This document shows, one piece after another, positions 12,845-49,982 of a stretch of 62,290 bases of DNA. The DNA is from an uncultured delta proteobacterium. GTDB lineage: Bacteria; Myxococcota_A; Polyangia; Polyangiales; Polyangiaceae. The position numbers were made by a program, and so were the translations under genes. Within the stretch, counting starts at the first letter, position 1. Each line of letters opens with the position of its first letter. Under the pieces are notes generated by a model, which saw only the letters and a list, made by a program, of their open reading frames with translations, was not told where the DNA came from and did not search any database. Location of the stretch: assembly GCA_903870415.1 (NCBI GenBank), contig CAIQDA010000094.1, forward strand, positions 1 to 62,290, read 5' to 3'.

Positions 12845-13050
12845 GCGCGGGATCTTACCTCCGTTTCGCGACGTCTCGTGGCGGCGCATCGACCCGCAAC
12901 GGCAATCCATCCGTGCTCTTCGGCGAAAAGGTGTTACGGGCCTGCCCTAGCTCCGTCGGGTCTGCTGCGGTTTTTCGTACCTCCAGGCCTCGCTCCTCCC
13001 GCCGACGACGGCCGCGCCACGTACGGCGCTCGGCGGGTACGCACAGAAGA

Positions 13051-14400
<1,350 letters not shown>

Positions 14401-14411
14401 GGCAAAACTCC

Positions 14412-14954
14412 ATGGCCCCGCGCGCAACGGTCTACAAGGCCCAACTCCAAATCGCGGACATGGATCGGCACTACTACGCCGATCATCCGCTCACGATCGC
14501 GTGCCATCCGTCCGAGACCGAAGAGCGGCTCATGATCCGCGTGCTCGCGTTCGCGCTCAACGCGAGCGAACACCTGACGTTCGGAAAGGGGCTCTCGGAC
14601 GACGACGAGCCCGACCTGTGGGCCAAAGACCTCACGGGAATCATCGAGCTCTGGATCGAACTCGGTCAGCCCGAAGAGAAGGCCATTCTGCGTGCATGTG
14701 GACGATCCGCAAAGGTCATCGTCTACGCGCACGTGGCGAACGCTGCGGCGTGGTGGGCCGGCGTCGAGGGGAAACTTTCGCGAGCGAAAAACCTTGCAGT
14801 CTACGCGATCGCCCCCGAATCGAAGGCCGCACTCGGTGCCCTCGCGGCACGGTCGATGGACCTGCAGTGCACGGTCCAAGACGGCGACGTATGGATCCGC
14901 ACTTCGACGGAATCGGTGCAGGTTGCCTTGATCACGCTGCGCGCACCGAACTAA
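14412..14954 (+). CDS. yaeQ: YaeQ-family protein (PD-(D/E)XK-like fold)
   Basis: Colinear with E. coli YaeQ as recalled: ATVYKAQLQIADMDR...HPSETEERLMIRVLAF...DDDEPDLW...IELWIELG. Confidence 0.9.
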   Translation: MAPRATVYKAQLQIADMDRHYYADHPLTIACHPSETEERLMIRVLAFALNASEHLTFGKGLSDDDEPDLWAKDLTGIIELWIELGQPEEKAILRACGRSAKVIVYAHVANAAAWWAGVEGKLSRAKNLAVYAIAPESKAALGALAARSMDLQCTVQDGDVWIRTSTESVQVALITLRAPN

Positions 14955-15005
14955 CGCCGACCTGTCTCGTGCTGCGGCCCCACCGTTGGGCTGGGCTTCC
15001 AAAAG

Positions 15006-15046
15006 GAAAAACCCCGTGTCGCTCGCTGAGCCACCGGGGTTTTTTC
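15006..15046. terminator. Bidirectional intrinsic terminator between convergent yaeQ and GT2 genes
   Basis: GAAAAACCCCG - 17-nt loop - CGGGGTTTTTTC. The arms extend into the A-run and T-run, so a U-tract is available on both strands. Confidence 0.7.
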
Positions 15047-15063
15047 TTGTCGTTCAGGCTCGC

Positions 15064-16551
15064 TCAGCGCGTGAGCCAGCGTCCGTCTTTGAGCGTCATG
15101 AACGAGTAGGGGAAGATCCACTGGAGGCCGATGAACGCCCAGAACGCGTAGCCGACGCCGTAGATGAAGTCCGTGCCGCGCTCGGAGCGGAGCGCATACA
15201 GCGACTGGATAAGGGCTCCAACACCGAGGGTCACAGCAGCGCGTGCGAGGTCGACGGGTTGCGCCACGAAGTGCCGGGCCATGAGAGCGAACGCGAAGTA
15301 CGAGGCGGGGTACTGGATGAGTTCGAGGAGAATCTCGAAGGTCGGCCACCAGCGGTCTTGCTTGCGCCACGAGGTGCCGAGGATCGGAAGCATCACGAAA
15401 CCCTCGCGGATGTTGCCGCGCTCCCAGCGAAGCATCATGCGCGTGATGCGCTTGAAGTCCGTTGGCATGATGGTGCGAACAACTGCGTTCGCTTGGTACA
15501 CCGCGCGGTAGCCGCAGCGGAGAAGCCACGTGTTGAGCGCGCGGTCCTCACCGATGGTGCACGCCTCGCCGAGGAAGGTCTGCGTCGACCAGCTCTCGAG
15601 CACTTGGCGGATACCTGTCGTGCGGTAGGCCGAGAGAGCGCCCGGCGTGCACAGCACTGCGCCGAAGCGCGACTGGGCTGCACGAAGGAGGTCGAAGGTG
15701 ACGAAGAAGCGGGCCGAGAGCAGGCGCGTGAAGAGGTTCTCGTAACGATTGAGCACGAGGACTTTGCCTGCGACCGCGTGAATACGCTCGTCGAGAAGCA
15801 TTGGCGCCACGATGTTGCGGAGCGCGTCGGACTCAAGCTGCGAATCGCTGTCGACGGTGACGACAAAGTCGCCGGTGGCGCGCTCAAAACCCGTGCGAAG
15901 GGCCTCACGCTTGCCGCCGTTCTTGGCTTGCTTGATGGCGATGACGCGACCTGGGAAGGCGCGGGCAACGGCCTGAATGTGCTCCCACGTATCGTCGGTC
16001 GAACCGTCGTCGATCGCGAGGATTTCGAGGCGGTCGGCTGGGTAGCGGTTTTCAATGGCGCTCAAAAGCGACACGCGCACCATGGCACCCTCGTTGTACG
16101 CCGGGACGACCACCGTGAGCTTCGGAAGCTGCGCGTCGGACGGAGCCTGCACCGGGCGGTATCGCACGGCGAAGTACAGCGAGAGGACGAAGTACGCCAT
16201 CGCGCCGAGTCCCGAGAGCTGCCACACGAGCGCCGTCGGCGAGCTGAAGTCGAACCGTGGCGACTCGACGAAAAGCGGGTTTCGGTTGCGCGCGAAGGCG
16301 ACCGCGACCGCGGCCAGCAGGCAGAGCACGATGCTCCCCTTCGCAAAGAAGTCGAACCAGCGATTGCGTCGAGACTCGGAGGACGTGCCCGGGATGGCGA
16401 CGTGAATCACCGAGCGAAGGGCGGCCGTCTTCAGGGGAAGCGGCGTAACGCCCCTGTAGGGAAGGGGCTCTTCCATACGCAGGGCAGGGGTGCCGGAATC
16501 CACAAGGGACCCGGGGGTGTAACAAACCGAGGAAAAGGTGACCTCAGACAT
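15064..16551 (-). CDS. Processive membrane GT2 synthase of the hyaluronan-synthase / NodC / chitin-synthase type
   Basis: TVVVPAYNEG, AIDDGSTD, TVDSDS (DxD), GEDRALN, and a QxxRW-type motif MMLRWERGNIRE. TM segments flank the catalytic domain. 495 aa. Confidence 0.8.
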   Translation of the reverse strand: MSEVTFSSVCYTPGSLVDSGTPALRMEEPLPYRGVTPLPLKTAALRSVIHVAIPGTSSESRRNRWFDFFAKGSIVLCLLAAVAVAFARNRNPLFVESPRFDFSSPTALVWQLSGLGAMAYFVLSLYFAVRYRPVQAPSDAQLPKLTVVVPAYNEGAMVRVSLLSAIENRYPADRLEILAIDDGSTDDTWEHIQAVARAFPGRVIAIKQAKNGGKREALRTGFERATGDFVVTVDSDSQLESDALRNIVAPMLLDERIHAVAGKVLVLNRYENLFTRLLSARFFVTFDLLRAAQSRFGAVLCTPGALSAYRTTGIRQVLESWSTQTFLGEACTIGEDRALNTWLLRCGYRAVYQANAVVRTIMPTDFKRITRMMLRWERGNIREGFVMLPILGTSWRKQDRWWPTFEILLELIQYPASYFAFALMARHFVAQPVDLARAAVTLGVGALIQSLYALRSERGTDFIYGVGYAFWAFIGLQWIFPYSFMTLKDGRWLTR

Positions 16552-16642
16552 GGCGGCAGGGGTGAGACGCCAAGACGATGGCGGCTATTCAACGGCGTCG
16601 CCGATTTGCACAACTCCAGGCGAAGAACAACTTCGGCGGGCT

Positions 16643-16662
16643 CTTTCGGCACCTTTCGGCAC
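16643..16662. repeat. Perfect 2 x 10-bp tandem direct repeat CTTTCGGCAC
   Basis: Read directly in the 135-nt gap between the PIG-L stop and the GT2 start. Confidence 0.9.
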
Positions 16663-16686
16663 GCTCGCCCGCGCGGATGGCTGAAC

Positions 16687-18003
16687 CTACGGAACGCCTG
16701 CGCAGCTCGGGTCTTCGGAAATCACCGGCGGCGAAGCGAACGAGACCAGCCGACGCCCAAACGGACCGGCGTCGTCCGACAGGTCCAGGGTCGCAGCGCC
16801 GCGACCTTCAGGCACCCAAAAAACCCTGGTGACGCCCAGGCGAACGCCCTCGAAGCGACGCGTGAGCCGCTCGACCGGTGAGAAGTGGTGCAGCAAGATT
16901 TCGGACCCCGCGTCGCCCTTGTCCCGAAGGCAAAGTCGGTCGAATTCCCCCGCGGCATCGATGCGCAACCCCACGCCAGGGCGAAGCGAAACGGAGGTCG
17001 CCGCCGGCCACGCACGACGACCACGTCCGCGCGCGTCGATAGGAGGCTCGCTCGAAACGCGCGAATCGAAACAGCGGCGAGGTGCAGCGTCCGTGCAGTG
17101 AAAGGGGCTGCGGAAAAAAACCTCGTCGGAGCGAACGAAGGACTGAAGCCAGCTCGTTTCAGGCGCAGGCCCAAGCTGGGACGCATACGCGCCAAGGAGG
17201 CGGCTCATCAAACCGGGCGGCGAGTCGCTCCATTGGACACGCAGGTCGGGCACGTACCCCGCGAGCGCGCCCGGAAGCGGTGGCGTGGGGGCCATGGGCT
17301 GTCGTTCGCCCCGTGGACTTCCCGCGCGTGCGGGAGAGGGCCAGTCGTCACCGGAGTGGACCACGGAGAGGAGAACCTCGGGCTCCGCAATCGAGGCTTT
17401 TTCCAAGGCTCGGTACACGTAGCGGCCCGTAGCGGCGTGGTCCGGATGATCGTCCGAAAGGTGCGCGGTCACGATGCGACGCGGCCGGTAGCGGTCGAAA
17501 AGCCAGGCAAGGTCGGTGACCAGCGCATCGAGCTGATACGGGCTTTCATGACCCATACGCTGCATAGCCACCGTCTGCGTCGCGTCTTCCGCCATCGCGT
17601 AAGTGCCCGTGGCCTCCACGCACACCCCCGCGGCGTCGAGGCGCTTCGTGGGGGCGAGAGGCACGCGTCCGAGGCGATCAAGCGCGCCGTCTGGATAGCC
17701 GAGAAAGTGCACGCGTTGATGCTCAACACCCGCCATCGCAAGGGCATGAAGCGACTCGCGCTCGCGCACAAAGCCGCTTGTTCGACAGCCCCCATCGCCG
17801 TTCGTGAGGACCGCCACCACCACCGACTCGCCTCGAGCTCGCGCCTGCGCGATGAGAGCGCCGGCCATGATGACCTCGTCGTCCGGGTGCGTCGCGACGA
17901 CGAGAAGATCAACGCCCTCGAAAGCCGGCGAATGCGCGTGGCACGAGCCGACACTCGCGGCGGCCACGAGTCCGCAGAGGGCAATGGCTAGTTGTTTGGA
18001 CAC
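16687..18003 (-). CDS. PIG-L/LmbE-family (CAZy CE14-type) N-acetylglucosaminyl deacetylase, lipoprotein, with about 180-aa C-terminal domain of unknown function
   Basis: VVATHPDDEVIMAG and SDDHPDHAATG metal/catalytic motifs. I prefer GTG at 18003, which gives VSKQLAIALCGLVAAASVGSC (signal peptide plus Cys). The ORF track extends to 18147. Confidence 0.75.
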   Translation of the reverse strand: MSKQLAIALCGLVAAASVGSCHAHSPAFEGVDLLVVATHPDDEVIMAGALIAQARARGESVVVAVLTNGDGGCRTSGFVRERESLHALAMAGVEHQRVHFLGYPDGALDRLGRVPLAPTKRLDAAGVCVEATGTYAMAEDATQTVAMQRMGHESPYQLDALVTDLAWLFDRYRPRRIVTAHLSDDHPDHAATGRYVYRALEKASIAEPEVLLSVVHSGDDWPSPARAGSPRGERQPMAPTPPLPGALAGYVPDLRVQWSDSPPGLMSRLLGAYASQLGPAPETSWLQSFVRSDEVFFRSPFHCTDAAPRRCFDSRVSSEPPIDARGRGRRAWPAATSVSLRPGVGLRIDAAGEFDRLCLRDKGDAGSEILLHHFSPVERLTRRFEGVRLGVTRVFWVPEGRGAATLDLSDDAGPFGRRLVSFASPPVISEDPSCAGVP

Positions 18004-18431
18004 TCGCTCGCGCAGCTCGCGGTGATGCAATCGCCAAGGCCCTGCGTCGCCGCTTTGCACGTGTCGGTTGCGCCGGTGAGGCAGCCAAATGCGCACGTCG
18101 TGTCGGAGCTCGCGCAAGCGCAAATGCAGGAATACATGGCTTGGCACGCGCCGCCGTACTTGCTCGGGTCCGTGCCAAACGTCGCCTGGAGCTGGGTCTT
18201 GCAGTGCGCCACTTCACAGGCGACACACGCTTGCGGATCGGGCGTTCCCGCCGACGCGCCCGCGCACACAACCTGCGAGCCGCCGATGTCGGTCGTTCCA
18301 CCTGCCGCAGCGCCGCCGTCAGCCGTTCCGCCATCGGACGTGGTGCCGGACGCGGTGCCGGACGTGGTGCCGGAGCTCGAAGCACAAGCGGCGGTGAAAG
18401 CGGCGAGGAGGAGAACCGAAAACATGCGCAT
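17988..18431 (-). CDS. Cys-rich secreted lipoprotein (147 aa)
   Basis: MRMFSVLLLAAFTAAC lipobox, a Gly/Thr/Ser linker, then a domain with about 14 Cys (CVACEVAHC...CICAC...). Its 3' end overlaps the PIG-L start by 16 nt. Confidence 0.6.
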   Translation of the reverse strand: MRMFSVLLLAAFTAACASSSGTTSGTASGTTSDGGTADGGAAAGGTTDIGGSQVVCAGASAGTPDPQACVACEVAHCKTQLQATFGTDPSKYGGACQAMYSCICACASSDTTCAFGCLTGATDTCKAATQGLGDCITASCASECPNN

Positions 18432-18463
18432 CAAACGCACGGTACCCCGCCCCGCCCGCCTCT

Positions 18464-19669
18464 TCAATCGCGCCACATCCCGACGGAGCCGCCGACGAAG
18501 CGGAAGCCCTTGTTGAAGTCGACGCCGAGCATTTTTCCACGCGAAAGCCTGACGAGGCAAAGAAGCGGCGCGGGCATGCCGCCCGGCTCGTCGCGAAGAA
18601 GCATGACCCGCACTTCGGCCTTCACCGTGCCACCGTCGGGTGCCTCGAAGGCATTCGCGTAGGTGATCTTTTCTTGCAGAATCCATCCACTTCGCTCGCC
18701 CACGGGAATCGCGTCGATGTCCGCTTGCGTGGGGTCGAGGATGACGCCCGCGCCCGCGAACGAGAAGAGCGGCTTCAGAACGTAGTCCCCCAGATTCCCT
18801 GGAATTTCCGAGACTTCATGAAGAAACGTCGCCTTGGGAACGGCGCGGTGGTTCACGTACGGAAGCGCGTACTTGGACCAGATCCAGTACCAGTTCGGGT
18901 GCGACGCCCACTCCACGTCGAGGTCGTCACCCCAAGCGAAGGGAGCGTTCAGGCCCTTCTTTTCGAGCTCGTCGAAGACCACCCGGTTGTAGATGCGCCT
19001 TACACGGACCCGCTCGCCGCTCGCATCGCGGCGGTAGAGGTTGCGCCCCTCGCGCTCGAGCTTGGTGATGCAGCACGACTCGACGCCGAAGAAGAGCCGC
19101 GTGGTCACGAAATCCGGGACGGTCTTCTGCTCCTCGGGCTCCACGTCGACGAGCACGACTTCGCGTGGATCATGGTCGCCCACGATCACGCGTCGCATTT
19201 GCTCAACAGCCTCGGCGCGCGTCTTTCCGTTGAACGGCGTCCACGGTCCTTCGAGCTCGGGAAACGCGTTGAGCTCGTCGGTCCACGCGCCGGCCATGAG
19301 CGTCATCATCGCGTAGAGCGACGGAAACGCCTGAAGCTCGACCACCCTGCCCTCGAATGTTCCGTCGGCATTCTCGACGACCGCGAAATCGACTTGGGCA
19401 CAGTCCGGCAGCGCGGGCTCACCGCGCACGTTGAAACGCTCGGGAACCGCTCCGCGCAGCTTCTCGAGGAGCGCCGGATCCGCGAGCTGTTCGACGATGG
19501 CGCTCGCGCTCGTGAACAAGAACTCGCGAAGCTCCTTCGAGATGAAAAACGGAGTCTCCGCGAGCTGGAACGGAATCGGCCCGACCTGATTCTCGAGACG
19601 CGTGCGGTACGAGGCGAAGAGTTCTTCGCTCCAGCGGGCATTGAAGAGAGCGCGTTCAGGCCGATTCAT
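18464..19669 (-). CDS. ATP-grasp-superfamily-like amidoligase (circularly permuted / glutathionylspermidine-synthetase-like); function unknown
   Basis: GAGGA before ATG 19669. QVDFAVVENADG...VVELQAFPS, RIYNRVVFDEL and YVLKPLFSFAGAGVIL blocks resemble CP-ATP-grasp proteins as recalled. Not verified. Confidence 0.45.
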   Translation of the reverse strand: MNRPERALFNARWSEELFASYRTRLENQVGPIPFQLAETPFFISKELREFLFTSASAIVEQLADPALLEKLRGAVPERFNVRGEPALPDCAQVDFAVVENADGTFEGRVVELQAFPSLYAMMTLMAGAWTDELNAFPELEGPWTPFNGKTRAEAVEQMRRVIVGDHDPREVVLVDVEPEEQKTVPDFVTTRLFFGVESCCITKLEREGRNLYRRDASGERVRVRRIYNRVVFDELEKKGLNAPFAWGDDLDVEWASHPNWYWIWSKYALPYVNHRAVPKATFLHEVSEIPGNLGDYVLKPLFSFAGAGVILDPTQADIDAIPVGERSGWILQEKITYANAFEAPDGGTVKAEVRVMLLRDEPGGMPAPLLCLVRLSRGKMLGVDFNKGFRFVGGSVGMWRD

Positions 19670-19700
19670 GGGTTCCTCGTGGACTCGCGGAAAGCGCGCA

Positions 19701-20903
19701 TCAGTGGTTTGGCTTGGCCGGCGCGGGAAGGACCGCGCTGATTTCGCCAGCGAATTTCCGCACAACAGCGTCACGCCGTACGCACATCTCTTCGTGGGTG
19801 TCGGCGACGACGACGAGACCCGCGTGGTAGTTTTCTTTCACTTCGTACGCGATGCCTTCGACGCCGAGTTTCTTGTAATCTACAGATTCCGTACGCGAGA
19901 GCGTGTTGATGAGCGCGCCCTGTTTGCGGAAGCCTGTCGGCGCGGTCCACGATTCGCCGCGCAGATGCGCGACCTCGAGTTCGGCCCAACCGGCCCACGG
20001 ATTGATGCCGCGAGTGCACTCGATGAGCTCCGCGATGTGCACGCCGCCGACCCTGGCGCCGGCCTCAAGAAAGTGAAACTCGCCCGACGCGCTCTTGATG
20101 TACTCGGCGTGGCACGAGCCGCGCTTCAGGCCGAGCGTCGGAATGAGCTTCTCGTTGAGCGCGAGCAGCGCGGTCTCATCGGCCGAACCCTCCGGCAACG
20201 TGAACGACGTGTAGATGCCGCCGCCGTGGGCCACCGTGAAGGGAGGCGTGCCGCACTGATGCGCCGCTGCGAACACGATGCGACCGTCGTCGACGAGGCT
20301 GTCCACGTGAAACACGTCGCCAGGCAGGAAACGCTCGAGCAGAAAGAACGAACGCTTGTCGCCTTGGCCGCGAAGAATGTCCCAAAGCTGCTGCTGGTTG
20401 TGAACCTTCGTGATGCCGACGGCGGACGCTTCCGAGCGTGGCTTGTGCATCCAGGGAGCGGGAACGCGCTCGCAAAACCGTGCGACCTCGTCGTCATGAA
20501 AAAGGCCCGTGAAATCCGGAACGGGAAGCCCCGCATCGCGCGCCGTGGTGCGCATGGCGAGCTTGTCGCGGAAGTTGCGGGCCGTCGAATCGCCCATGCC
20601 CGGCATGCGCAAGTGCTCGCGGATCATCGCTGCGGTTTCGACGTCGAAATCGTCAAGGGCCGCCACCGCATCGAAGGGCACGCTGCGCGACAAGTAGCTG
20701 ACCGTGTTGATCCAGTCTTCGCGCTTCGGTGCGTCGTGAAGGGCGAACACGTCCTGAAGCGAACCGCGCGGCCAAGGCTGCCGCAGCAGTTTTGCGAGCG
20801 TGAGCAGATACACTTTCGCGCCCTTCGCGGCCGCTTCGATCATGAAACGGTCGCCCTTGAAGTAGGACGCAATGCAGAGAATCGTCGGGGCTTCGTTTGC
20901 CAT
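19701..20903 (-). CDS. ATP-grasp carboxylate-amine ligase
   Basis: 400 aa. Pre-ATP-grasp N-terminus, KPRSEASAVGITKV, LLERFLPGDVFHVD, and FLEAGARVGG (E-x-x-x-R-x-G-G). Confidence 0.75.
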   Translation of the reverse strand: MANEAPTILCIASYFKGDRFMIEAAAKGAKVYLLTLAKLLRQPWPRGSLQDVFALHDAPKREDWINTVSYLSRSVPFDAVAALDDFDVETAAMIREHLRMPGMGDSTARNFRDKLAMRTTARDAGLPVPDFTGLFHDDEVARFCERVPAPWMHKPRSEASAVGITKVHNQQQLWDILRGQGDKRSFFLLERFLPGDVFHVDSLVDDGRIVFAAAHQCGTPPFTVAHGGGIYTSFTLPEGSADETALLALNEKLIPTLGLKRGSCHAEYIKSASGEFHFLEAGARVGGVHIAELIECTRGINPWAGWAELEVAHLRGESWTAPTGFRKQGALINTLSRTESVDYKKLGVEGIAYEVKENYHAGLVVVADTHEEMCVRRDAVVRKFAGEISAVLPAPAKPNH

Positions 20904-20920
20904 GGCTTGCCTTGTTGCTC

Positions 20921-22687
20921 TCAGTGAATCGGCTCGGTGCCGTGGAAGTTGTCGTAGTGGGCGATGGAGATGGTTCGACCGTCGGCCCAGCTTTCGCTCT
21001 TCGGCCCGAGCAGGTCGCGCGCGGCCTCGGAGAGAGGCCCCACCATGCGAAGCGCAAGCAGCTCGTCGACGTAACGGGCTCTCAAATCAAGGCCGTGAAA
21101 ACGGTGACCGCGGCGCACGCTCGCGCGAAACGGCTGGGCGCGCTGACGTGCCCACGCAAGCGCTTTGAGCGACGCGCGGTAGCCGTCAATTGCTGTGAGT
21201 TCGTCGCCTGGCGCGAGCCCCGCTTCGTAGGCGGGCGAGCCCTCGAGAACCTGCGCGACCACAAGCGAACCTTTGGGCTCAAGGAGAAAACCAAGGCGCG
21301 CGCGCGGCTTGCGCTCAACTTCGAACCCGAGGCTCTGGAGCGCGACCAACGTCTCAAGCGTTGCTGGCCGCCGCACCTTGCGCGCCACCCATCCCTCGAG
21401 CGCGGGAAAGCGCGCCTCGAGAAACGCTGCGAAGGCCGCGGTGTCGAAGCCGGGCTTGTTTTCGTATGCGTGATAAAATTCGGAAAACAACGCATCGAGC
21501 GACGAGCGGAACCGCGTGCGCAGAAGCGCGTCGAGCTCGAAGGCCACGAGCATTCCGCCGTCGTAGTAGTCGAGGGTCGCATTCCACGCGCCAGCCCAAC
21601 GCGTGTGATTCAAGAACGTGGCGAGCGACGAGTCGACGAGGGTCGTGTGCCGGTAAGCGGGGCGCACCGTGTGGTGCACGGAGAACGAGACCATGTTCTC
21701 GAGAAAGCGCGACGGCTCCATGAGGCCCGCGCGCACGAGAAGGAAGAACTCGTAATACCTTGTCACTCCCTCACACAGCCATAGCGCATCCGTGTACGAG
21801 CCCTCGGTTCGCGAAGGCTCACGGTACGCGTCGGGCCTGAGTCGCCACACATTCCACGCGTGAAAAAGTTCGTGCGCCGCAACGCGAAGCGCGCAGAAAC
21901 GCGCCTCTTCGTCGATGAAGGCGTCCTCGCCGATGGCGATCATGGTGCCGTGCGCGTGCTCAAGACCCCAGTGGTCGCGCGGGTCGAAGGAGATGATCCA
22001 CGTGTAGCGCTCGAACGGGAATGACCCGAACAGATCGTGGCAAGCCTCGGCGATGCGCACGAGCTCGTCGACGAAGCCTTCGACCTCGGCTTCAAACCCG
22101 ATCGCCTGTTGGCAAAAGACGTGTTCGAAACGGCACCCGCGCACCTGGCGAACGATGACCGTGGGCTCGCCGACAACCATGGGCGTGTCGAGCCATGCTT
22201 CGAACGAAGCAAAGCGATGGACGCGCGGATCTCGCGTCTTTTCCTCGACGCCGGCCACAAGAAGTTGACGTCCGTCGCCCACGTCGACCACGACGTCGAC
22301 GGGGCCGCGCCACTCGGCGGGCACAGGAAATGCGGTCGGCAAAAGGATGCCGCCGTCGTCGCGAAGAATTCCCGCGAGCTCGCCCCACGAGGCGTCGCGC
22401 GCTTGAACCGTCGCGGAGAAAAACACTGTCGAGAGGGTGCCGCCCGCAGGCGCGAGAATGCGAAAACGGCTCAGGCCTTCGCGTTCGATCACGAGCGGAG
22501 TTCCGTCGCCGCCCATCGCGGCGAGCGCGTAGAGGTCGCGGCCATAACGAAGGAACGCGTACGCTCCGGCGACCCACGTGGGCACCTCGAGAAGAAGCTC
22601 GGACACCTCGTTGAGGTCGTGCAGGTCGAGCGAAAGCTGCACCGCGCCCTGCCGGTCGACGCGCACGCGATAGAGGGGAGTTTCCAA
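20921..22687 (-). CDS. M61-family metallopeptidase (glycyl-aminopeptidase-like) with C-terminal PDZ domain
   Basis: AAHELFHAWNV (HExxH), the downstream EGVTRYYE, and PDZ (GSPAYEAGLAPGDELTAIDG). I prefer TTG at 22687, with GGAG 9 nt upstream and 1 nt after the preceding stop. The ORF track extends to 22795. Confidence 0.8.
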   Translation of the reverse strand: METPLYRVRVDRQGAVQLSLDLHDLNEVSELLLEVPTWVAGAYAFLRYGRDLYALAAMGGDGTPLVIEREGLSRFRILAPAGGTLSTVFFSATVQARDASWGELAGILRDDGGILLPTAFPVPAEWRGPVDVVVDVGDGRQLLVAGVEEKTRDPRVHRFASFEAWLDTPMVVGEPTVIVRQVRGCRFEHVFCQQAIGFEAEVEGFVDELVRIAEACHDLFGSFPFERYTWIISFDPRDHWGLEHAHGTMIAIGEDAFIDEEARFCALRVAAHELFHAWNVWRLRPDAYREPSRTEGSYTDALWLCEGVTRYYEFFLLVRAGLMEPSRFLENMVSFSVHHTVRPAYRHTTLVDSSLATFLNHTRWAGAWNATLDYYDGGMLVAFELDALLRTRFRSSLDALFSEFYHAYENKPGFDTAAFAAFLEARFPALEGWVARKVRRPATLETLVALQSLGFEVERKPRARLGFLLEPKGSLVVAQVLEGSPAYEAGLAPGDELTAIDGYRASLKALAWARQRAQPFRASVRRGHRFHGLDLRARYVDELLALRMVGPLSEAARDLLGPKSESWADGRTISIAHYDNFHGTEPIH

Positions 22688-22688
22688 C

Positions 22689-23447
22689 CTAAAACGCTCC
22701 CGCGACGGAAAAACCGAGCCCCATCGGCGCGATTGAAATCGCACGTGAGTCGCTCGTCGAGGCCGCAGGAACAGCTCCGCTCGCCGCTCGCGCAATGGAC
22801 CAGTTCTCTTCGAGGATGGAGACTTGACCCGGCAACTTCGCGAGCATCAACGCACGGACGGCAGCAGCCGCGGCACCGGCTCCGAAGCTGGCTCCGCGCA
22901 CCAAGCGCGACGTGGGCGAATCGCTCTCGGAGAGCGCTTCGTTCACCGCGAATCCCAAGAACAACGCGGACACGACACCCGACGTCCACGCGCCGACATC
23001 GCGCGCACTGCGCTCTTCCCGTGCGGCGATTTTCAACGTCACGTCGACGCGGTGCAACCGGTCAGGATCGCTTGGCGCACCCGGAATCGCGCGAACCTCT
23101 TCGGCCAAACGTTCAACGGGGTCGCTGCCAAAAAACGCGAACGGCGCCGACGCGAGCGTGATGATGCCCGAGCCAAGAAGCGCATACCCGGCCGCGCGTC
23201 CGCTCGTGTCGGTGCTCGGCGTTCCGTCAAGAACGGCCTGGCCACAAGCGGCCAACGCCGCACCAGCCACGAGGCCACCAACGGCTTGAATGCGACGCTC
23301 AACGCCTGCCCGCGAGGCTGCGTTCTCGATCATGGCGTCGAGGGATGGACCTTCGGCGAAGGCCGGCCCTGCGGCGACGAAGACGAGAGCGGCAGCCCGC
23401 GCGGACAGACGAGCGATCACGCGATCACCAGCCCTGTAGACGCTCAC
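22689..23447 (-). CDS. Hypothetical membrane/secreted protein
   Basis: Ala/Gly-rich with about 4 hydrophobic segments. Alternative GTG at 23420 gives the signal-like VIARLSARAAALVFVAAGPAFA and removes the 23-nt overlap with the esterase gene. Confidence 0.5.
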   Translation of the reverse strand: MSVYRAGDRVIARLSARAAALVFVAAGPAFAEGPSLDAMIENAASRAGVERRIQAVGGLVAGAALAACGQAVLDGTPSTDTSGRAAGYALLGSGIITLASAPFAFFGSDPVERLAEEVRAIPGAPSDPDRLHRVDVTLKIAAREERSARDVGAWTSGVVSALFLGFAVNEALSESDSPTSRLVRGASFGAGAAAAAVRALMLAKLPGQVSILEENWSIARAASGAVPAASTSDSRAISIAPMGLGFSVAGAF

Positions 23448-24249
23448 CGACGACGAGCGGGAGCATGCGACGCCACCAAACCCAGTCGTGGTTCACGTCC
23501 CAGCCCCAAACGTCGAGGTTGCACGGAATGCCCTTCGCCGCGAGCTTCGAGGCGAAGCGGCGCGAGGCGTCGGGAAGTTCGTAGTCGCCCTGACCGGTCA
23601 GGATGTTGATCTGCGTGTGGTTTCGCAGCAGATCAAGACCGTGGCTCTCGGGCAACTGGGGGACGTACACCCCAGGGTTGTTGTAGTATACATTGTCGTC
23701 CGAATACCCCTTGAGGTAGTAGTCGCCGAGCTCGTAGAAGCCGCTCATCGCGATGAGCGAGTCGAACATGTCCGGGCGACGGAAGACGGCGTTGGCGGCG
23801 TGGAACGCACCGAAGCTCGCGCCTGCGGTGCCGATACGCGCGTTCGGATTGCCGAGTTCGCGCCGGATGTGCGGAACGACTTCTTCTTCGATGTAGCCGC
23901 TGAAGAGCGCCTGACGGCGGGCCTTCTCGGGTACCGGCACATCACGCTTCATCCACGAAATGTCGTTGATGGTGTTGATGCAGAATACAGAGATTCTTCG
24001 GTCGTGGATCAAGTGCTCGATGGCCTTGATCAGGAAGAAGCGCTCGCAGTCGTACAGGTCGCTCTGGGCCGTCGGAAAGAGGAGAAGGGCGCGGCCCCAA
24101 TTACCGTACCGCACGATGGGCATGTGCATCCCCAGGCGCGGGGAGTGCCAGCCGAACTCTTGTTTCGGTGTCGATGGATCGATGAATTGCACAGTCTCAC
24201 CTCGGTGAAGGCGGCAGAATACGCGAGCCAGCGGAAAGCGCGTGTCCAT
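23425..24249 (-). CDS. Alpha/beta-hydrolase 'putative esterase' family protein
   Basis: GxSxG nucleophile elbow (GASFGAF). General resemblance to esterase D / enterochelin-esterase-type proteins. I prefer the start at MDTRF (24249). Confidence 0.65.
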   Translation of the reverse strand: MDTRFPLARVFCRLHRGETVQFIDPSTPKQEFGWHSPRLGMHMPIVRYGNWGRALLLFPTAQSDLYDCERFFLIKAIEHLIHDRRISVFCINTINDISWMKRDVPVPEKARRQALFSGYIEEEVVPHIRRELGNPNARIGTAGASFGAFHAANAVFRRPDMFDSLIAMSGFYELGDYYLKGYSDDNVYYNNPGVYVPQLPESHGLDLLRNHTQINILTGQGDYELPDASRRFASKLAAKGIPCNLDVWGWDVNHDWVWWRRMLPLVVGERLQGW

Positions 24250-24349
24250 TCGATAGGTTGCACGCAAAAGGTCCGAGGCGAAAACGTCTTGCCCAGCGTC
24301 TCCCCCGCATTCCCTTGCTGGGGCGCGCGCGTGCGCTCGTTTGAGCGCG

Positions 24350-24847
24350 TCAGCCTTCGTCGCTTTGGGGGTCGACGATCGGAACGTGGAAGCACGCAAG
24401 TCTTTCGGTCACTGCGGCGCGAAGGGCTTCGTCGTCGGCGGTCGCGGGCAACTCGAATGGAGAGCCGTCGAACTGCACGAGCACGACGCGGGAGCCGTCG
24501 AGAAACGCGCCGCGAAGCTCTGCGAAGTACGCGGTGTGAACCCGCGGCATACCGAGCGCGTTCGAGGTCCGCGCGGTGATGCGATCGTCGTCCACCACGA
24601 CTCCGGCAAGACGACCGCGAGCCCATGTGCCGGCGCCCGTGACGATGAGCAACGCGCCAAAGATCTTCGGAGCAAGCGCGTCCGGGTTGCCGCGAAGCAA
24701 GCGCGCCACGCTCGGCGACACGAGCCCTCGATCGGCGAGCAACACGAGAACCCCGACCGATGCGAAGAGCAGAAACCACGCGAGCGAGAGGAGCTGCGCA
24801 TAGAGCGGCGCGTGCAGATGACGGCGCTTGAACGTGGCCCCGGTCAC
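24350..24847 (-). CDS. Membrane protein, two TM segments plus soluble (PH-like?) C-terminal domain
   Basis: 165 aa. LLSLAWFLLFASVGVLVLL and IFGALLIVTGAG segments. The GTG start overlaps the upstream stop (GTGA at 24844-24847). Confidence 0.55.
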   Translation of the reverse strand: MTGATFKRRHLHAPLYAQLLSLAWFLLFASVGVLVLLADRGLVSPSVARLLRGNPDALAPKIFGALLIVTGAGTWARGRLAGVVVDDDRITARTSNALGMPRVHTAYFAELRGAFLDGSRVVLVQFDGSPFELPATADDEALRAAVTERLACFHVPIVDPQSDEG

Positions 24848-26193
24848 GTGGGCCTTACGCTTGTTCGGTTTTCATCGCGCTTCGCTTCGCGGCGCTCCTC
24901 GCGCAAGAGAGCGATTTCGCTCTTCGACGGGTTGACGATGAAGAGGCCGTGGTCGGCGTCAACGAGCGCCAAGTCACCGTCCGACGCCCAGCGAAAGACG
25001 CCGGTGACGTCGATGAGCGACGGCTTGCCGAGCAGCTCAAGCAGCACTTTCGTGCGCGGACCTTGCGCGCGTTCGCTGAGGACGAAGGCCACGGGTTCCG
25101 CATGCGCCGAGACCAGCAAGTCGAAGACACCGATGTTGTCCCCAACGAGAACCGCCTTCGATGGCACCCGCGCACGAGGGTCTTCGGCGGCGATCATGAC
25201 GAGCGCGTCGCAAAGATCTTCGATGTCTTTTGCACGCTCTTCGAGGAACGAATCGCGCGCGAACGCCGTGGCTGCACGTGTCGCCAAACGGGCCACGGAC
25301 AAGAGCGCTTTCGCGATGGGTTCGCCCTTCGCAACCTCGTCGAGAGCCACGTCACGCAACCGCGCGTCGGACAGAATCAGCGCGTAGGTTTCGAGGAATG
25401 CCGCGCCCTCGGTGAGGGAGAGTTCACGCGCGCGGCCCTGCCACCTTGTCACGAGGCGCGCAGCGTCGTCGAACGCGGTCTTCAACCGCTTTGCTTCGTC
25501 TTTCGCCGAGGCTTCCACTTTGCGTTTCGGCGCGTGCGCGGCCGGACGCCGCATCGCCGCCATGGCCCCCATGACGCGACCAAGCACGACAGGGCGCCCC
25601 GTCAACGTCACTTTGCGCGTGCCCCCGCCGGCACTGCGCGTCGCCGCTCGCTCACGCTGCCTGTCGATGAGCTCCGCCTGACGAACATACCCCGCGACGA
25701 TGGATCCGATCGCGCACGCGAGTTCCACGTCGGCTTTCGCGAACGCAGGTGCTTCGCGCTGAACGACGATGGCGCCAAGCGCTCCGTTCTTTCCAAGAAT
25801 CGGGACCGCGAGGAAGGCCGGGTAGCGCTCTTCGCCAAGGGTTCCAAAGTGCTTGTAGGCTGCATGCGATTGCGCGAGCTCGGCGGAGATCGGCCTCAAG
25901 TACTCAACGGCCTTTCCCGTGATGCCCTCGCCAACGTTGAGGCGCACCTGGCCGATGGCCTTCGAGGTGAACCCCACGTTGCCGCGCATGACGAGCTCTT
26001 GCCCGTCGCCTTCGACGAGGTAGACCGAGCAAACGGCTGCACCGAAAAGCTTGGCGAAGCGTCGCGGCAAATCGTCGAGCAAGCGCACGAGCGGCATCGG
26101 CGTCGCCGCGAACGACAAGAGTTCGAGGAGCTCGTCGAGGCGCGCATCCCCTTTGGCGTAGACGTGCGGCACACTCTCCGAAGGCCCGTTCAT
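24844..26193 (-). CDS. GAF domain + PTS Enzyme-I N-terminal region (PtsP-like) lacking the PEP-binding C-terminal domain
   Basis: GAF block (GEGITGKAV...FLAVPIL). EI-N blocks FLETYALILSDARLRDVALDEV and FLEERAKDIEDL match E. coli PtsP as recalled. The protein ends after the swivel-domain region at 449 aa. Confidence 0.7.
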   Translation of the reverse strand: MNGPSESVPHVYAKGDARLDELLELLSFAATPMPLVRLLDDLPRRFAKLFGAAVCSVYLVEGDGQELVMRGNVGFTSKAIGQVRLNVGEGITGKAVEYLRPISAELAQSHAAYKHFGTLGEERYPAFLAVPILGKNGALGAIVVQREAPAFAKADVELACAIGSIVAGYVRQAELIDRQRERAATRSAGGGTRKVTLTGRPVVLGRVMGAMAAMRRPAAHAPKRKVEASAKDEAKRLKTAFDDAARLVTRWQGRARELSLTEGAAFLETYALILSDARLRDVALDEVAKGEPIAKALLSVARLATRAATAFARDSFLEERAKDIEDLCDALVMIAAEDPRARVPSKAVLVGDNIGVFDLLVSAHAEPVAFVLSERAQGPRTKVLLELLGKPSLIDVTGVFRWASDGDLALVDADHGLFIVNPSKSEIALLREERREAKRDENRTSVRPT

Positions 26194-26322
26194 GGGGCCG
26201 AACTAGGCGGATTCGCCCGCGCTTCGCAACCCGCCTGGCAACGGAAACGCCTTCGCCGCCGCGCTCGCGTGCACGCGTCCACGCCTTGCGCGTACGCCTC
26301 ATGGGCGCTAGCGGGCCGGCGT

Positions 26323-26757
26323 ATGGGTCACGTTTTTCCTTCTCCCGAGTGGGTGGCCGCTTACCGCGACGCAATCAACGCGAGCGAGGGCTACCGCCGC
26401 GCCGGACGCGATTGGACACACGGTGTGGTGGCGATGGTGGTGAAGGGCGACCCGGCGCTCGGCGTTGAGAAAGACCTCGCCATGATGCTCGACGTGCACC
26501 AAGGCGAATGCCGATCCGCGTCGCTCGTCGATGGCAGCGAGTCGGCGTCGGCCGCGTTCGTGATCGTCAGCGATTACCCTCGCTGGAAGAGCGTCTTGCT
26601 TCGTGAGGTCGATCCGACCAAGGCGATGATGCAAGGCAAACTTCGGCTGACGAAGGGCCACATGCCGACGATGATCAAGTTCGTGCAGGCATCGAAGGAG
26701 CTCGTCGACGCCGCAGGCAACGTGGCGACCGTGTTCCGCGACGCCGCGGCCGTCTGA
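26323..26757 (+). CDS. SCP2 sterol-carrier-like domain protein
   Basis: 144 aa. DPTKAMMQGKLRLTKGHMPTMIKF is the typical SCP2 C-terminal block. ATG at 26323. Confidence 0.75.
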   Translation: MGHVFPSPEWVAAYRDAINASEGYRRAGRDWTHGVVAMVVKGDPALGVEKDLAMMLDVHQGECRSASLVDGSESASAAFVIVSDYPRWKSVLLREVDPTKAMMQGKLRLTKGHMPTMIKFVQASKELVDAAGNVATVFRDAAAV

Positions 26758-26767
26758 GCCGAGAGCC

Positions 26768-33585: not shown

Positions 33586-33739
33586 GCCGTTCCCCAGTTG
33601 GCCCGGTTTCGTCTACCTGCGATGGACGAATTCACGCTGAGCGAAACCGGCGACGCCAGGAGTTCAACGAGCCACGCCGCGATGGCACCCTTTCCTGATT
33701 CGCGTGCTAGGACCTTGGGCCGCACGCGTGAGAAGCACC

Positions 33740-40633: not shown

Positions 40634-40643
40634 GGCTCACGAG

Positions 40644-40683
40644 CGACTTGGGGTGTGACGGTGCCTCAGGTACCGTCAAGTCG
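40644..40683 (-). other. Interrupted 6+6-bp hairpin in the glmS 5' leader / divergent promoter region
   Basis: CGACTT-(7-nt bulge)-GACGGT - 9-nt loop - ACCGTC-AAGTCG, 11-50 nt upstream of the glmS ATG. Confidence 0.3.
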
Positions 40684-40728
40684 CGGCACGACGCTAATCG
40701 ACCGCGCGGGAAGGGCAATCGAGTCGCG

Positions 40729-46740: not shown

Positions 46741-46804
46741 CCGCGCACGAACATCGTCACTTCAGCCGTCGAAGGCTCCGCGTGCCGTTACGCGTCAATT
46801 CGGG

Positions 46805-49843: not shown

Positions 49844-49982
49844 GGGCGGCGCAACGTGCCCGAGGCTCTGCGCGGTTGCAACGGCGACGGCCCGCACCCG
49901 CGGCGATAATCTTTCCGCGCGCCCCATTAACTCTGAAGGATGGAGTGTCGCATCGCTTTCAGAAGAGAACGGTGACTGGGCG

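Follow-up and report, generated by a model that had tools for sequence, protein, structure and literature searches.

The window, by which we mean the whole 62,290-nt stretch that we analysed, carries on its minus strand a run of co-directional genes; all features below lie on that strand unless stated otherwise. An earlier note had described this run as an array of eight genes. These eight are present in the order given there, and all seven junction distances were reproduced from the ORFs and their most plausible starts; however, the array does not begin with them but extends two genes further upstream. Its first gene, encoding a GAF and PEP-utilisers_N protein (24844-26193), overlaps a 165-aa hydrophobic ORF (24350-24847) by 4 nt, and a 100-nt gap then leads to the eight: an esterase (23425-24249, or from a GTG at 24192), a membrane ORF (22689 to 23447 or 23420), an M61 zinc aminopeptidase (20921-22687), an L-amino-acid-ligase-type (Lal) ATP-grasp enzyme (19701-20903), a 401-aa ligase designated P4 (18464-19669), a 147-aa Cys-rich lipoprotein (17988-18431), a PIG-L/LmbE (CE14) de-N-acetylase (16687-18003) and a processive GT2 of the hyaluronan-synthase/NodC/chitin-synthase type (15064-16551). 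We refer to the first five, with P4 as anchor, as Module A (24249-18464) and to the last three as Module B (18431-15064). The esterase and membrane ORF overlap by 23 nt if the latter starts at 23447, or are separated by 4 nt if it starts at 23420. Gaps of 1, 17 and 31 nt follow between the membrane ORF, M61, Lal and P4; P4 and the lipoprotein gene are 32 nt apart, the lipoprotein and PIG-L genes overlap by 16 nt, and a 135-nt spacer (16552-16686) precedes GT2. Beyond GT2, between it and the convergent YaeQ gene, lies the bidirectional intrinsic terminator that had been proposed (15006-15046), a hairpin of -25.6 kcal/mol (z = -5.5; 0 of 200 shuffles equally stable) flanked by A6 and T5 runs. 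There was no strong terminator in the array interior and no convincing one in the P4-lipoprotein gap, and the eight genes may well be co-transcribed in this lineage.

Compared with the relative L001, third-codon-position substitutions predominate in 10 of 10 co-directional ORFs (dN/dS 0.07-0.38), and all ten are real genes under purifying selection. In the same comparison constraint falls into two tiers, the esterase, Lal and P4 having a dN/dS near 0.1 and the envelope proteins one of 0.2-0.4, an observation that we count in favour of two modules. The GAF gene (dN/dS 0.07) matches Pfam GAF_2 and PEP-utilisers_N and aligns to NCBIfam PRK11061 over model positions 16-407 of 748, resembling the N-terminal half of PtsP/EI-Ntr with the C-terminal PEP-binding domain absent. 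L001, L091 and the P0126 contig also carry it upstream, but it was found near P4 in 0 of 62 other species and is a lineage-specific neighbour outside both modules. The 165-aa ORF has a counterpart in L001 (54% identity, dN/dS 0.38) and matched nothing in Pfam or NCBIfam.

The esterase product is an alpha/beta-hydrolase, esterase/peptidase S9-like, with a GASFG nucleophile motif, dN/dS of 0.09 and two weak family matches (PF00756 at 2e-6, Peptidase_S9 at 3e-6). Because tblastn alignments to its homologues begin at GTG 24192, this codon is probably the true start, giving a protein of 255 aa. The membrane ORF (243-252 aa) has a signal peptide and hydrophobic segments, lacks family matches and turned up in close relatives alone, where it is 58% identical. 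It is fast-evolving, and its dN/dS of 0.23 against L001 marks it as a real gene; other Myxococcota (L003, L007, L008) have a 332-aa RimK-like ATP-grasp in its slot. M61 matches Peptidase_M61 (88.9 bits), M61_N and, at its C-terminus, PDZ, as well as PDB 4fgm at 1e-29, and contains the HELFH motif. Lal consists of ATP-grasp_4 and ATPgrasp_N domains with the motif EAGARVGG (dN/dS 0.11), has more than 4000 homologues, including one in Pendulispora, and finds its best solved relatives among L-amino-acid ligases (4wd3 at 4e-17, and 3vot).

P4 has no Pfam match even at E = 1, none in NCBIfam and no PDB sequence match, yet its homologues number at least 7934, in 278 clusters at 50% identity (E <= 1e-30), and thus form a large family without a curated Pfam or NCBIfam model. 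In Foldseek searches its AF2 model (pLDDT 91.4) matched 1m0w, 3n6x, YgiC (7uk8), human GS, Cp1B (9cjn) and GspS (2io7) best, at E of 6e-13 to 3e-10, and TryS as well, with a probability of 1.0 and TM-scores around 0.5-0.65 at just 10-18% identity. P4 is thus predicted to be an ATP-grasp ligase with a glutathione-synthetase/glutathionylspermidine-synthetase-type fold. The residues invariant among its homologues are K299, E352, R354, D384 and N386, and we infer that this Lys, Glu/Arg and D-x-N sit at the ATP- and Mg-binding places of ATP-grasp enzymes. Profile searches upheld the enzyme families named previously, except that the ATP-grasp nature of P4 comes from structure prediction. The catalytic motifs DSDS, GEDR, HPDDE, HPDH, HELFH, GASFG and EAGARVGG are likewise all read in the translations.

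The gene neighbourhoods of P4 were compared over 62 species-representative loci in which 6 kb or more lay upstream of the P4 homologue, counting neighbours within 8 kb. Frequent neighbours are a RimK-like ATP-grasp (32 loci), GCS2 (29), the esterase (26) and a GATase-like protein (22), and rarer ones are an M29 peptidase (8), Lal (3) and M61 (2). GT2, PIG-L, the lipoprotein, the membrane ORF and the GAF gene were each found at 0 of 62; these counts support the separation of the modules at the level of gene neighbourhoods. In many phyla the canonical cassette reads esterase, RimK-like ATP-grasp, YbdK/GCS2 carboxylate-amine ligase, gamma-glutamyl-peptidase-like amidotransferase (or M29) and P4. 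Its GCS2 member reaches 543 bits with the NCBIfam model for carboxylate-amine ligases, and its GATase-like member matches gamma-glutamyl peptidase 1 by profile, with the Cys-His-Glu triad intact. Myxococcota have M61 and the Lal-type ATP-grasp in place of GCS2 and of the amidotransferase or M29. Five of their loci (L003, L005, L007, L008, L013) show (esterase-ATP-grasp)-M61-Lal-P4, with M61 adjoining the ATP-grasp and P4, and without GT2 or PIG-L; the three closest to the window after its syntenic relatives (L003, L007, L008) keep esterase-M61-ATP-grasp-P4 and also lack the lipoprotein. Pendulispora brunnea has esterase-ATP-grasp-Lal-P4. Ligase, peptidase and esterase genes are therefore a genuine, recurrent functional set around P4 homologues, as had been suspected, and in Module A we see the Myxococcota form of a cross-phylum cassette, its second ligase and its peptidase displaced by the non-orthologous Lal and M61. 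The window's Module A has no RimK-like ATP-grasp, GCS2 or GATase, so its product is possibly not that of the canonical cassette. A literature search found no publication mentioning the M61/ATP-grasp/P4 set.

Several known systems come close to Module A or its enzymes. P4 shares its predicted fold with the clade of eukaryotic-type GS, GspS, YgiC-YjfC and fungal Cp1B, although it has no detectable sequence membership in it, and its context of esterase, further ligases and peptidase differs from gshA/gshB and gss. The enzymes of this clade characterised so far join the carboxylate of a small molecule to an amine by way of an acyl-phosphate. Lal resembles the L-amino acid ligases RizA (4wd3), BL00235 (3vot) and BacD in its ATP-grasp_4 and ATPgrasp_N domains; the match is distant, at 4e-17 at best, and the characterised enzymes, unlike Lal, are not known to be encoded beside genes for an M61 peptidase or for a GS-like ligase. 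Amidoligase neighbourhoods combining ATP-grasp and COOH-NH2 (GCS2/YbdK) ligases with peptidases were reportedly catalogued by Iyer, Abhiman, Burroughs and Aravind (Mol Biosyst 2009; cited in PMC4431377), and such neighbourhoods resemble Module A in their enzyme types and in having several ATP-dependent amide ligases and hydrolases, with no NRPS.

Alternatively, Module A could modify a protein, its ligases adding amino-acid tails to a C-terminus or side chain and M61-PDZ and the hydrolase removing them. RimK adds such tails to ribosomal protein S6, a RimK-family-like ATP-grasp belongs to the canonical cassette, and the cassette has no transporter or precursor gene. PDZ domains often bind C-terminal peptides, and M61 bears one; however, a PDZ domain is usual in the M61 family. 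The structural neighbours of P4 (GS, GspS, TryS and Cp1B, with YgiC uncharacterised) are small-molecule ligases, the nearest solved relatives of Lal produce free dipeptides, and one member of a Module A ligase family is fused to a sodium:solute symporter. No conserved candidate target gene was found in the neighbourhood. We regard protein modification as unlikely and favour a small metabolite as the product of Module A.

Module B differs from Module A in predicted cellular location. The earlier note had cautioned that topology might separate a secreted from a cytoplasmic set, and this caution was borne out: the lipoprotein and PIG-L carry lipoprotein-type signals and GT2 is a membrane protein, while esterase, M61, Lal and P4 have no export signal. 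The lipoprotein (signal MRMFSVLLLAAFTAAC) has no credible family match and is confined to close relatives, with 45-51% identity (dN/dS 0.38). PIG-L, for which the public gene call starts at TTG 18030, scores 89 bits in Pfam, and its HPDDE and HPDH motifs are invariant or nearly so in the homologue alignment. A lipobox-like signal (…AAASVGSC), together with N-terminal Cys-containing signals that recur in homologues, predicts an exported, lipoprotein-anchored deacetylase. In Foldseek, its AF2 model (pLDDT 83.6) matched TT1542, BshB, MshB and diacetylchitobiose deacetylase with values between 1e-9 and 1e-7, and the beta-sandwich domain at its C-terminus gave just a weak galectin-like match. GT2 matches Glyco_tranf_2_3 (103 bits) and has DDGS, DSDS and GEDR motifs. 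It is closest to hyaluronan synthases (7sp7 at 3e-32), its alignment to CvHAS spanning residues 207-477 and thus including the C-terminal membrane (channel) region. The "LRWERG" read previously belongs to a non-canonical form of QxxRW: the sequence is MMLRW, with Met replacing Gln. The spacer upstream of GT2 is conserved in relatives, aligning at 85% column identity between the window, L001 and L091, while synonymous sites in the flanking genes differ at 46-60%. It has no Rfam or sigma-70 consensus match, and its conservation suggests a candidate promoter or 5' leader of the synthase gene's own and makes a separate control region possible.

The pairing of GT2 with PIG-L recurs without ligase genes in two to three different gene arrangements, PIG-L homologues (39-45% identity) lying within 7 kb of GT2 orthologues (41-55%) at L087, L088 and L090. 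The link is not obligatory, since GT2 is missing from the surroundings of one PIG-L homologue (L089), and nine GT2 loci of the same clade, all with complete flanks, lack a PIG-L gene within 10 kb. Like PgaABCD/IcaADBC and NodC/NodB, Module B combines a processive membrane GT2 with a de-N-acetylase, which here too would act on a GlcNAc product, and its deacetylase is predicted to be extracytoplasmic, as in Pga and Ica. It differs in that this enzyme is CE14 rather than CE4, GT2 scores 129 bits against the PgaC model (cut-off 422) and 172 against the NodC model (cut-off 550), and a PgaA-like porin, PgaD/IcaD and NodA were not found nearby; nor was any outer-membrane export partner seen.

PIG-L shares its fold and zinc/catalytic motifs with MshB, BshB and diacetylchitobiose deacetylase, and the order glycosyltransferase, deacetylase, ligase superficially fits a mycothiol- or bacillithiol-type pathway to a low-molecular-weight thiol, a logic raised in the earlier note. 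These known CE14 enzymes work in the cytoplasm, on small GlcNAc conjugates. PIG-L, in contrast, has a lipoprotein signal, the extra C-terminal domain and a polymer-synthase partner. Although its best NCBIfam matches are BshB1 (52.7 bits), BshB2 (30.4) and MshB (26.2), these are weak and far under the family cut-offs of 182-224 bits. The glycosyltransferase is a membrane polymerase-type GT2 and not a GT4 MshA/BshA, the ligases are ATP-grasp enzymes with no MshC- or BshC-like member, and the three functions are not co-conserved (0 of 62 species). The family tests thus contradict a thiol pathway, which we find scarcely credible.

The earlier note had joined all eight genes in one pathway, in which amino acids or peptides would be ligated to, and trimmed from, a hexosamine glycan or glycoconjugate that had lost some of its N-acetyl groups. 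The genes are closely spaced, and de-N-acetylation would yield free amines, the type of nucleophile that ATP-grasp ligases use; however, with the deacetylase exported and the ATP-dependent ligases cytoplasmic, amine and ligases would be in separate compartments. All eight genes occur together only in L001, L002, L091 and the P0126 contig. In these four very close relatives P4 is at least 80% identical, and the order of the eight is kept despite PIG-L and lipoprotein identities of 44-59%. Synteny there extends to the flanking housekeeping genes (BrkB, SCP2, YaeQ, DEAD-helicase and T2SS-ATPase), and retention of the eight is therefore not gene-specific. The nearest non-syntenic Myxococcota loci lack GT2 and PIG-L. 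With neither gene near P4 in any of the 62 species, and the pair found elsewhere without ligases, we consider one pathway quite improbable; the note itself had named orthologues dispersed in related genomes as grounds for rejecting it.

Together this suggests that the array probably joins two modules of independent function that lie side by side only in this lineage. Counting against separation are the 32-nt P4-lipoprotein gap and an adjacency kept though PIG-L diverged to 47% identity; since that gap holds no convincing terminator and the adjacency has outlasted the divergence, co-transcription and even functional coupling of the modules are possible in this lineage. We hypothesize that Module A is a cytoplasmic amide-ligase/trimming cassette, in which the two ATP-grasp enzymes would form successive ATP-dependent amide bonds via acyl-phosphate intermediates, building a small peptide-like or amide metabolite that the aminopeptidase and the alpha/beta-hydrolase may trim, deprotect or turn over. 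In Module B, which we place at the cell envelope, GT2 would polymerise a GlcNAc-containing glycan from a UDP-sugar and move it across the inner membrane, and the exported PIG-L would partly de-N-acetylate it in the periplasm, following the logic of PgaC/PgaB, IcaA/IcaB and NodC/NodB with a CE14 enzyme replacing CE4.

The earlier note described eight minus-strand ORFs packed into 15064-24249, and we reproduced all eight along with every junction between them: an overlap of 23 nt (or, alternatively, a gap of 4 nt), gaps of 1, 17, 31 and 32 nt, an overlap of 16 nt and a gap of 135 nt. Profile searches confirmed the enzyme families that had been named; the ATP-grasp gene product matches ATP-grasp with an ATPgrasp_N domain, and the esterase gene product has a weak esterase/Peptidase_S9 alpha/beta-hydrolase match. 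In comparison with L001, a relative whose P4 (the product of 18464-19669, minus strand) is 87% identical, third-codon-position bias and dN/dS values of 0.07-0.38 indicate that all of the ORFs are real genes, including two without a family match. The esterase probably starts at GTG 24192. The bidirectional terminator proposed at 15006-15046, between the GT2 glycosyltransferase gene and the convergent YaeQ gene, is fairly described, as the hairpin has a folding energy of -25.6 kcal/mol (z = -5.5) and sits between runs of A and T. Our terminator scan found no enrichment of terminator-like sites over shuffles and missed this hairpin because its loop is too long. No sigma-70 consensus site was found in the promoter scan. 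An Rfam scan of 14000-27000 for riboswitches and leaders, such as a c-di-GMP riboswitch upstream of the synthase, returned only a sub-threshold match to RT-3 RNA (21379-21539, plus strand, antisense inside the M61 gene), which we judged to be due to chance (23 bits against a gathering score of 40.5, E = 0.05).

The co-directional run begins two genes earlier than had been noted, with 26193-24844 and then 24847-24350. The first of these (24844-26193, minus strand) encodes a GAF and PEP-utilisers_N protein that resembles the N-terminal half of PtsP (EI-Ntr) without the C-terminal PEP-binding domain, and the second (24350-24847, minus strand) is a hydrophobic ORF of 165 aa that overlaps the GAF gene by 4 nt. 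Only close relatives have these two genes immediately ahead of the esterase, and the pair may be a lineage-specific regulator.

To examine conservation we turned to gene neighbourhoods, using 80 species-representative loci around P4 homologues, to which loci from exact-protein look-ups were added. Neighbours were scored by tblastn and by clustering of all ORFs, and were counted within 8 kb of P4 in the 62 loci with at least 6 kb of upstream sequence. The GT2, PIG-L deacetylase, Cys-rich lipoprotein, membrane ORF and GAF genes were each found in 0 of these 62 loci, and PIG-L and GT2 pair elsewhere without ligases, so the single pathway joining glycan synthesis to the ligases and peptidase, as the earlier note proposed, is not supported. 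Only close relatives with general synteny keep the whole eight-gene order. The PIG-L subfamily is small (44 matches), its members at 44-59% identity belong to the same lineage, and the three contigs examined from that lineage (L001, L091 and the P0126 contig) keep the entire region, from BrkB/SCP2 and the GAF gene through all eight genes to YaeQ, a DEAD helicase and a T2SS-type ATPase. Retention of the eight genes in close relatives is therefore general synteny as opposed to specific linkage, and the tight packing is adjacency within one lineage. In this lineage the two modules, the ligase/hydrolase genes (module A: esterase, membrane ORF, M61 peptidase, the L-amino-acid-ligase-type ATP-grasp Lal and P4) and the glycan genes (module B: lipoprotein, PIG-L and GT2), may still be co-transcribed or functionally coupled.

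The center of module A is P4, which had been called ATP-grasp-like. It has no Pfam match even at E = 1 and no credible NCBIfam match, and a profile of its family found nothing better than E = 0.15 among PDB sequences. With sequence searches giving nothing useful, structure prediction and Foldseek alone placed the protein. The AlphaFold model, built with 15 homologues, is confident (pLDDT 91.4) and yielded 21 Foldseek matches at E <= 1e-3. Twenty of these are glutathione synthetase (GS) or GS-like proteins, glutathionylspermidine synthetase (GspS), trypanothione synthetases, E. coli YgiC, the putative GspS 3n6x, or Cp1B, the E-64 pathway ligase; the GS-type matches comprise glutathione synthetases of the eukaryotic type, a homoglutathione synthetase from a plant and GS-like effectors from nematodes. 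The weakest of the 21 (3k1t, 1.5e-5) carries the annotation of a putative gamma-glutamylcysteine synthetase. Two of the 21 are Methylobacillus structural-genomics proteins, annotated as a putative glutathionylspermidine synthase and a putative gamma-glutamylcysteine synthetase. In the homologue alignment the invariant residues include the Lys in VLKPLFSFAG, E352/R354 and D384-x-N386, which fit the ATP-grasp nucleotide- and metal-binding positions as we infer the mapping. From the fold matches and the invariant residues, P4 is best described as a predicted GS/GspS-type ATP-grasp amide ligase of an uncurated family, and the earlier call was right in kind.

The family is large. A word-indexed search gave at least 7934 significant homologues among 8000 scored candidates, most of them about 55% identical, and an exhaustive search of 1.84 billion representatives gave 278 clusters at E <= 1e-30. 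Identity is about 55% across Myxococcota and 38-50% in other phyla. Several of the distant family members (P0322, P0333, P0348 and P0355) have an N-terminal signal peptide and an extension of 150-190 aa, which would put their ATP-grasp-like domain outside the cytoplasm.

Within 8 kb of P4, a RimK-like ATP-grasp of about 330 aa occurs in 32 of the 62 loci, a YbdK/GCS2 carboxylate-amine ligase in 29, an esterase in 26, a GATase-like protein in 22, an M29 aminopeptidase in 8, a Lal-type ATP-grasp in 3 and M61 in 2. Counted by species, a second ligase lies near P4 in 36/62 and a peptidase in 31/62. We defined a cassette as P4 with an esterase, at least one further ligase and a peptidase, all lying within about 5 kb in co-directional or divergent orientation, and the window holds one in its esterase, M61, Lal and P4 genes. 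The canonical order, esterase - ATP-grasp - GCS2 - GATase-like or M29 - P4, was seen in Eremiobacterota, Acidobacteriota, Gemmatimonadota, Planctomycetota and Bacteroidota, the last including Pedobacter caeni and Spirosoma terrae. Against the carboxylate-amine ligase model of NCBIfam, the GCS2 of Pedobacter reaches 543 bits. The profile of the 330-aa protein matches D-Ala-D-Ala ligases and biotin carboxylases, which marks it by sequence as a genuine ATP-grasp, and the best solved relatives of the GATase-like profile include plant gamma-glutamyl peptidase 1, with the Cys-His-Glu triad kept.

Myxococcota carry a different order, esterase - ATP-grasp - M61 - Lal-type ATP-grasp - P4 (L003, L007 and L008), with shorter forms in L005 and L013 and the arrangement esterase - ATP-grasp - Lal - P4 in Pendulispora brunnea. 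Just downstream, on the strand opposite to P4, a GCS2 - ATP-grasp - GATase-like trio is present in L003 (13032-16301), L007 (11210-14465) and L011 (12192-15233). L003 and L007 thus hold the canonical and the Myxococcota-type enzyme sets at one locus, and L011 does not, being without M61 and Lal. The RimK-like ATP-grasp between GCS2 and the GATase-like gene in these three trios is a second copy. The esterase and P4 stay constant while one ligase is exchanged for another and one peptidase for another, which is the hallmark of non-orthologous displacement within a single functional system.

The window cassette is a reduced form of this system. The RimK-like ATP-grasp is absent from the window, the GCS2 and GATase-like genes are absent throughout the 62 kb, and a fast-evolving membrane protein occupies the slot usual for the RimK-like enzyme. 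We considered whether this membrane ORF (22689-23447) is a degraded remnant of that ATP-grasp and rejected the idea, as no similarity to the enzyme was found and the ORF is under purifying selection.

The esterase, M61, Lal and P4 proteins have no export signals and evolve slowly, with dN/dS of about 0.1 for three of them. Lal (19701-20903, minus strand) scores 28.1 bits on ATP-grasp_4 (cut-off 27) and 26.1 on ATPgrasp_N, just under the cut-off of 27; its solved relatives 4wd3 (4e-17) and 3vot (5e-10) support an ATP-grasp core with a Lal-type N-terminal domain. The M61 protein scores 88.9 bits on PF05299 (cut-off 22), 29.1 on PF17899 (cut-off 23) and 31.8 on PDZ_6, and its HExxH motif reads HELFH. 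Lal-type ATP-grasp enzymes couple free amino acids, and those of the GS/GspS type join a peptide carboxylate to an amine or amino acid. Based on this chemistry, we propose that successive ATP-dependent ligations by Lal and P4 would produce a small peptide-like or amide metabolite, which the M61 aminopeptidase and the alpha/beta-hydrolase might then trim, deprotect or recycle. Tailing of protein C termini in the manner of RimK remains a rival account of module A; the fusion of a sodium:solute symporter to the P4 domain in P0310 is compatible with a small-molecule substrate.

If the product is a small metabolite, glutathione metabolism offers a counterpart for each canonical component: gamma-glutamylcysteine ligase for YbdK/GCS2, the glutathione-synthetase fold for P4, gamma-glutamyl peptidase for the GATase-like protein, the S-formylglutathione-hydrolase family for the PF00756 esterase, and a trimming aminopeptidase for M29 or M61. 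A glutathione-like gamma-glutamyl peptide is therefore an attractive guess by inference from these parallels. We speculate, while regarding it as rather unlikely, that the cassette makes a new, widely distributed small peptide, possibly such a gamma-glutamyl compound, with soil Bacteroidota, Acidobacteriota, Eremiobacterota, Gemmatimonadota and Myxococcota as the producers. Under the peptide reading, the window would hold a derived version in which Lal and M61 stand in place of two steps. Module A falls in the general class of NRPS-independent amidoligase clusters. Our literature search found no description of the M61/ATP-grasp/P4 set, the canonical cassette or the P4 family; a 2009 amidoligase survey, outside that search, might contain the cassette.

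In module B, the best-scoring profiles for GT2 (15064-16551) are the NodC and PgaC models and Chitin_synth_2. Its alignment with hyaluronan synthases of Chlorella virus and vertebrates (3e-32) starts in the catalytic core and continues through the C-terminal membrane region. The protein also carries the motifs DDG, DSD and GEDR, and these features mark it as a likely processive, membrane-embedded synthase of the HAS/NodC/chitin-synthase group. To our knowledge, all members of this group use UDP-GlcNAc. The catalytic motifs quoted for the array are present in the translations and conserved in homologues, with one correction: "LRWERG" belongs to QxxRW, the acceptor-site motif, with Met for Gln. 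Residues at about 370-378 read R-M-M-L-R-W, compared with Q-Q-T-R-W in hyaluronan synthase. Across the window, L001, L087, L088, L090 and L093-L109, this Met is invariant in five GT2 orthologues and is seen again in some 15 relatives from metagenomes (~38-49% identity), so Met for Gln defines a GT2 clade. A GlmS-type glucosamine-6-phosphate synthase (GATase_6 and SIS; 38765-40636, minus strand) lies 22 kb from GT2 and is probably a housekeeping gene feeding the UDP-GlcNAc precursor pathway.

The PIG-L model (pLDDT 83.6) matches TT1542, BshB, MshB and archaeal diacetylchitobiose deacetylases. Its extra C-terminal beta-sandwich has weak lectin-like matches only, and we rejected a carbohydrate-binding module there because the galectin- and concanavalin-like matches are too weak (E about 0.01-0.04). 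PIG-L and several homologues have an N-terminal hydrophobic segment ending in a lipobox-like Cys, as does the N terminus of the 147-aa Cys-rich protein encoded upstream. The simplest mechanism would have two steps: the synthase would polymerise a GlcNAc-containing glycan and move it across the inner membrane, and the anchored CE14 enzyme would partially de-N-acetylate it in the periplasm. No outer-membrane export component was found near module B. The 135-nt spacer between PIG-L and GT2 (16552-16686) shows 85% conservation among three relatives and contains invariant blocks, TGTGCAAATCGGC, TTGAATAG and CGTCTCACCC among them, while about half of the synonymous sites in the flanking genes are substituted. 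This difference hints that GT2 has its own promoter or leader; the spacer has no Rfam or sigma-70 consensus match.

Four more distant PIG-L members (39-45% identity) have unrelated gene surroundings: the order is GT2 - 596-aa gene - PIG-L in L088 and PIG-L - sulfatase - 1157-aa AAA_16 protein - GT2 in L087 and L090, while L089 has no GT2 near PIG-L. The GT2s at these loci are orthologues of the window GT2 (41-55% identity), and none of the four loci has a ligase, M61 or esterase gene, so the PIG-L/GT2 pairing recurs independently of module A. Viewed from the GT2 side, none of nine full-flank metagenome loci of the R-M-x-L-R-W clade has a PIG-L within 10 kb, even by profile HMM, and no other partner is conserved among the nine. 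The pairing therefore recurs from the PIG-L side only and is not obligatory from the GT2 side.

The likeness to mycothiol and bacillithiol biosynthesis suggested by the earlier note failed on every defining feature tested. MshA and BshA are soluble GT4 enzymes that act on a small acceptor, whereas the window has a membrane GT2. MshB and BshB are cytoplasmic, whereas the window PIG-L carries a lipoprotein-type signal conserved in homologues and scores 52.7 bits on BshB1 (cut-off 182.5) and 26.2 on MshB (cut-off 224). The window ligases are ATP-grasp enzymes, with no match to the MshC or BshC cysteine ligase among the ten products of the co-directional run. GT2 is of the PgaC/IcaA superfamily and architecture but reaches only 129 bits on TIGR03937 (cut-off 422), and hyaluronan synthase and NodC are closer to it. 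The logic of PgaC/PgaB and IcaA/IcaB is common to module B; however, PgaB and IcaB are CE4 deacetylases, whereas PIG-L is CE14 by Pfam and fold. Neither a PgaA porin/TPR protein nor PgaD/IcaD is among the window neighbours; module B adjoins the ligase cassette at one end, and beyond its other end come YaeQ, a DEAD helicase and a T2SS-type ATPase. The Nod factor core differs as well, as GT2 scores 172 bits on the NodC model (cut-off 550) and profile searches found neither NodA acyltransferase nor NodB (CE4). The PNAG and Nod systems thus follow the same logic as module B, but their deacetylase family and accessory genes are different, and no GT2 and PIG-L polysaccharide system was found in our literature search.

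Several other genes in the window deserve mention. An MshEN protein, a T2SS/T4P-type ATPase (11036-12910, minus strand), lies two genes past GT2, and a protein with HD_5 (HD-GYP-like), MshEN and DUF4388 domains is encoded at 44701-46761 (minus strand); MshEN is a c-di-GMP-binding module. The plus strand encodes, within 10 kb of each other (40336-44169 and 49815-53456), a paralogous pair of 7TMR-DISM-type hybrid histidine kinases, each with 7TMR-DISMED2, 7TM, HisKA, HATPase and receiver domains. Within the window, third-position GC is highest (0.87) in the gene at 33641-36118 (plus strand). Its product, of about 780 aa, contains many cysteines, has no Pfam match and carries an N-terminal signal/lipoprotein-like sequence and a VWA-like DxSxS motif (DNSASM).

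Co-directional tight packing alone over-predicted a shared pathway here. A glycan-plus-peptide super-pathway would, if true, be a new kind of system, and the evidence gives it no support; each of the two modules is an uncharacterised variant of a kind of system already known. Polysaccharide de-N-acetylation is known from CE4 enzymes in PNAG and Nod-factor systems and from the PelA deacetylase in the Pel system, and a HAS/NodC-like synthase working with an exported CE14 deacetylase would, if true, extend it beyond these. For its breadth and conservation, the P4 cassette is the more interesting lead of the two. Its family has thousands of members and no Pfam or NCBIfam model, it anchors a ligase/hydrolase cassette in many soil phyla, and cultured carriers are at hand in Pedobacter caeni DSM 16990, Spirosoma terrae and Pendulispora brunnea. 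Identifying the product of the cassette would give a function to several "hypothetical" families at once.
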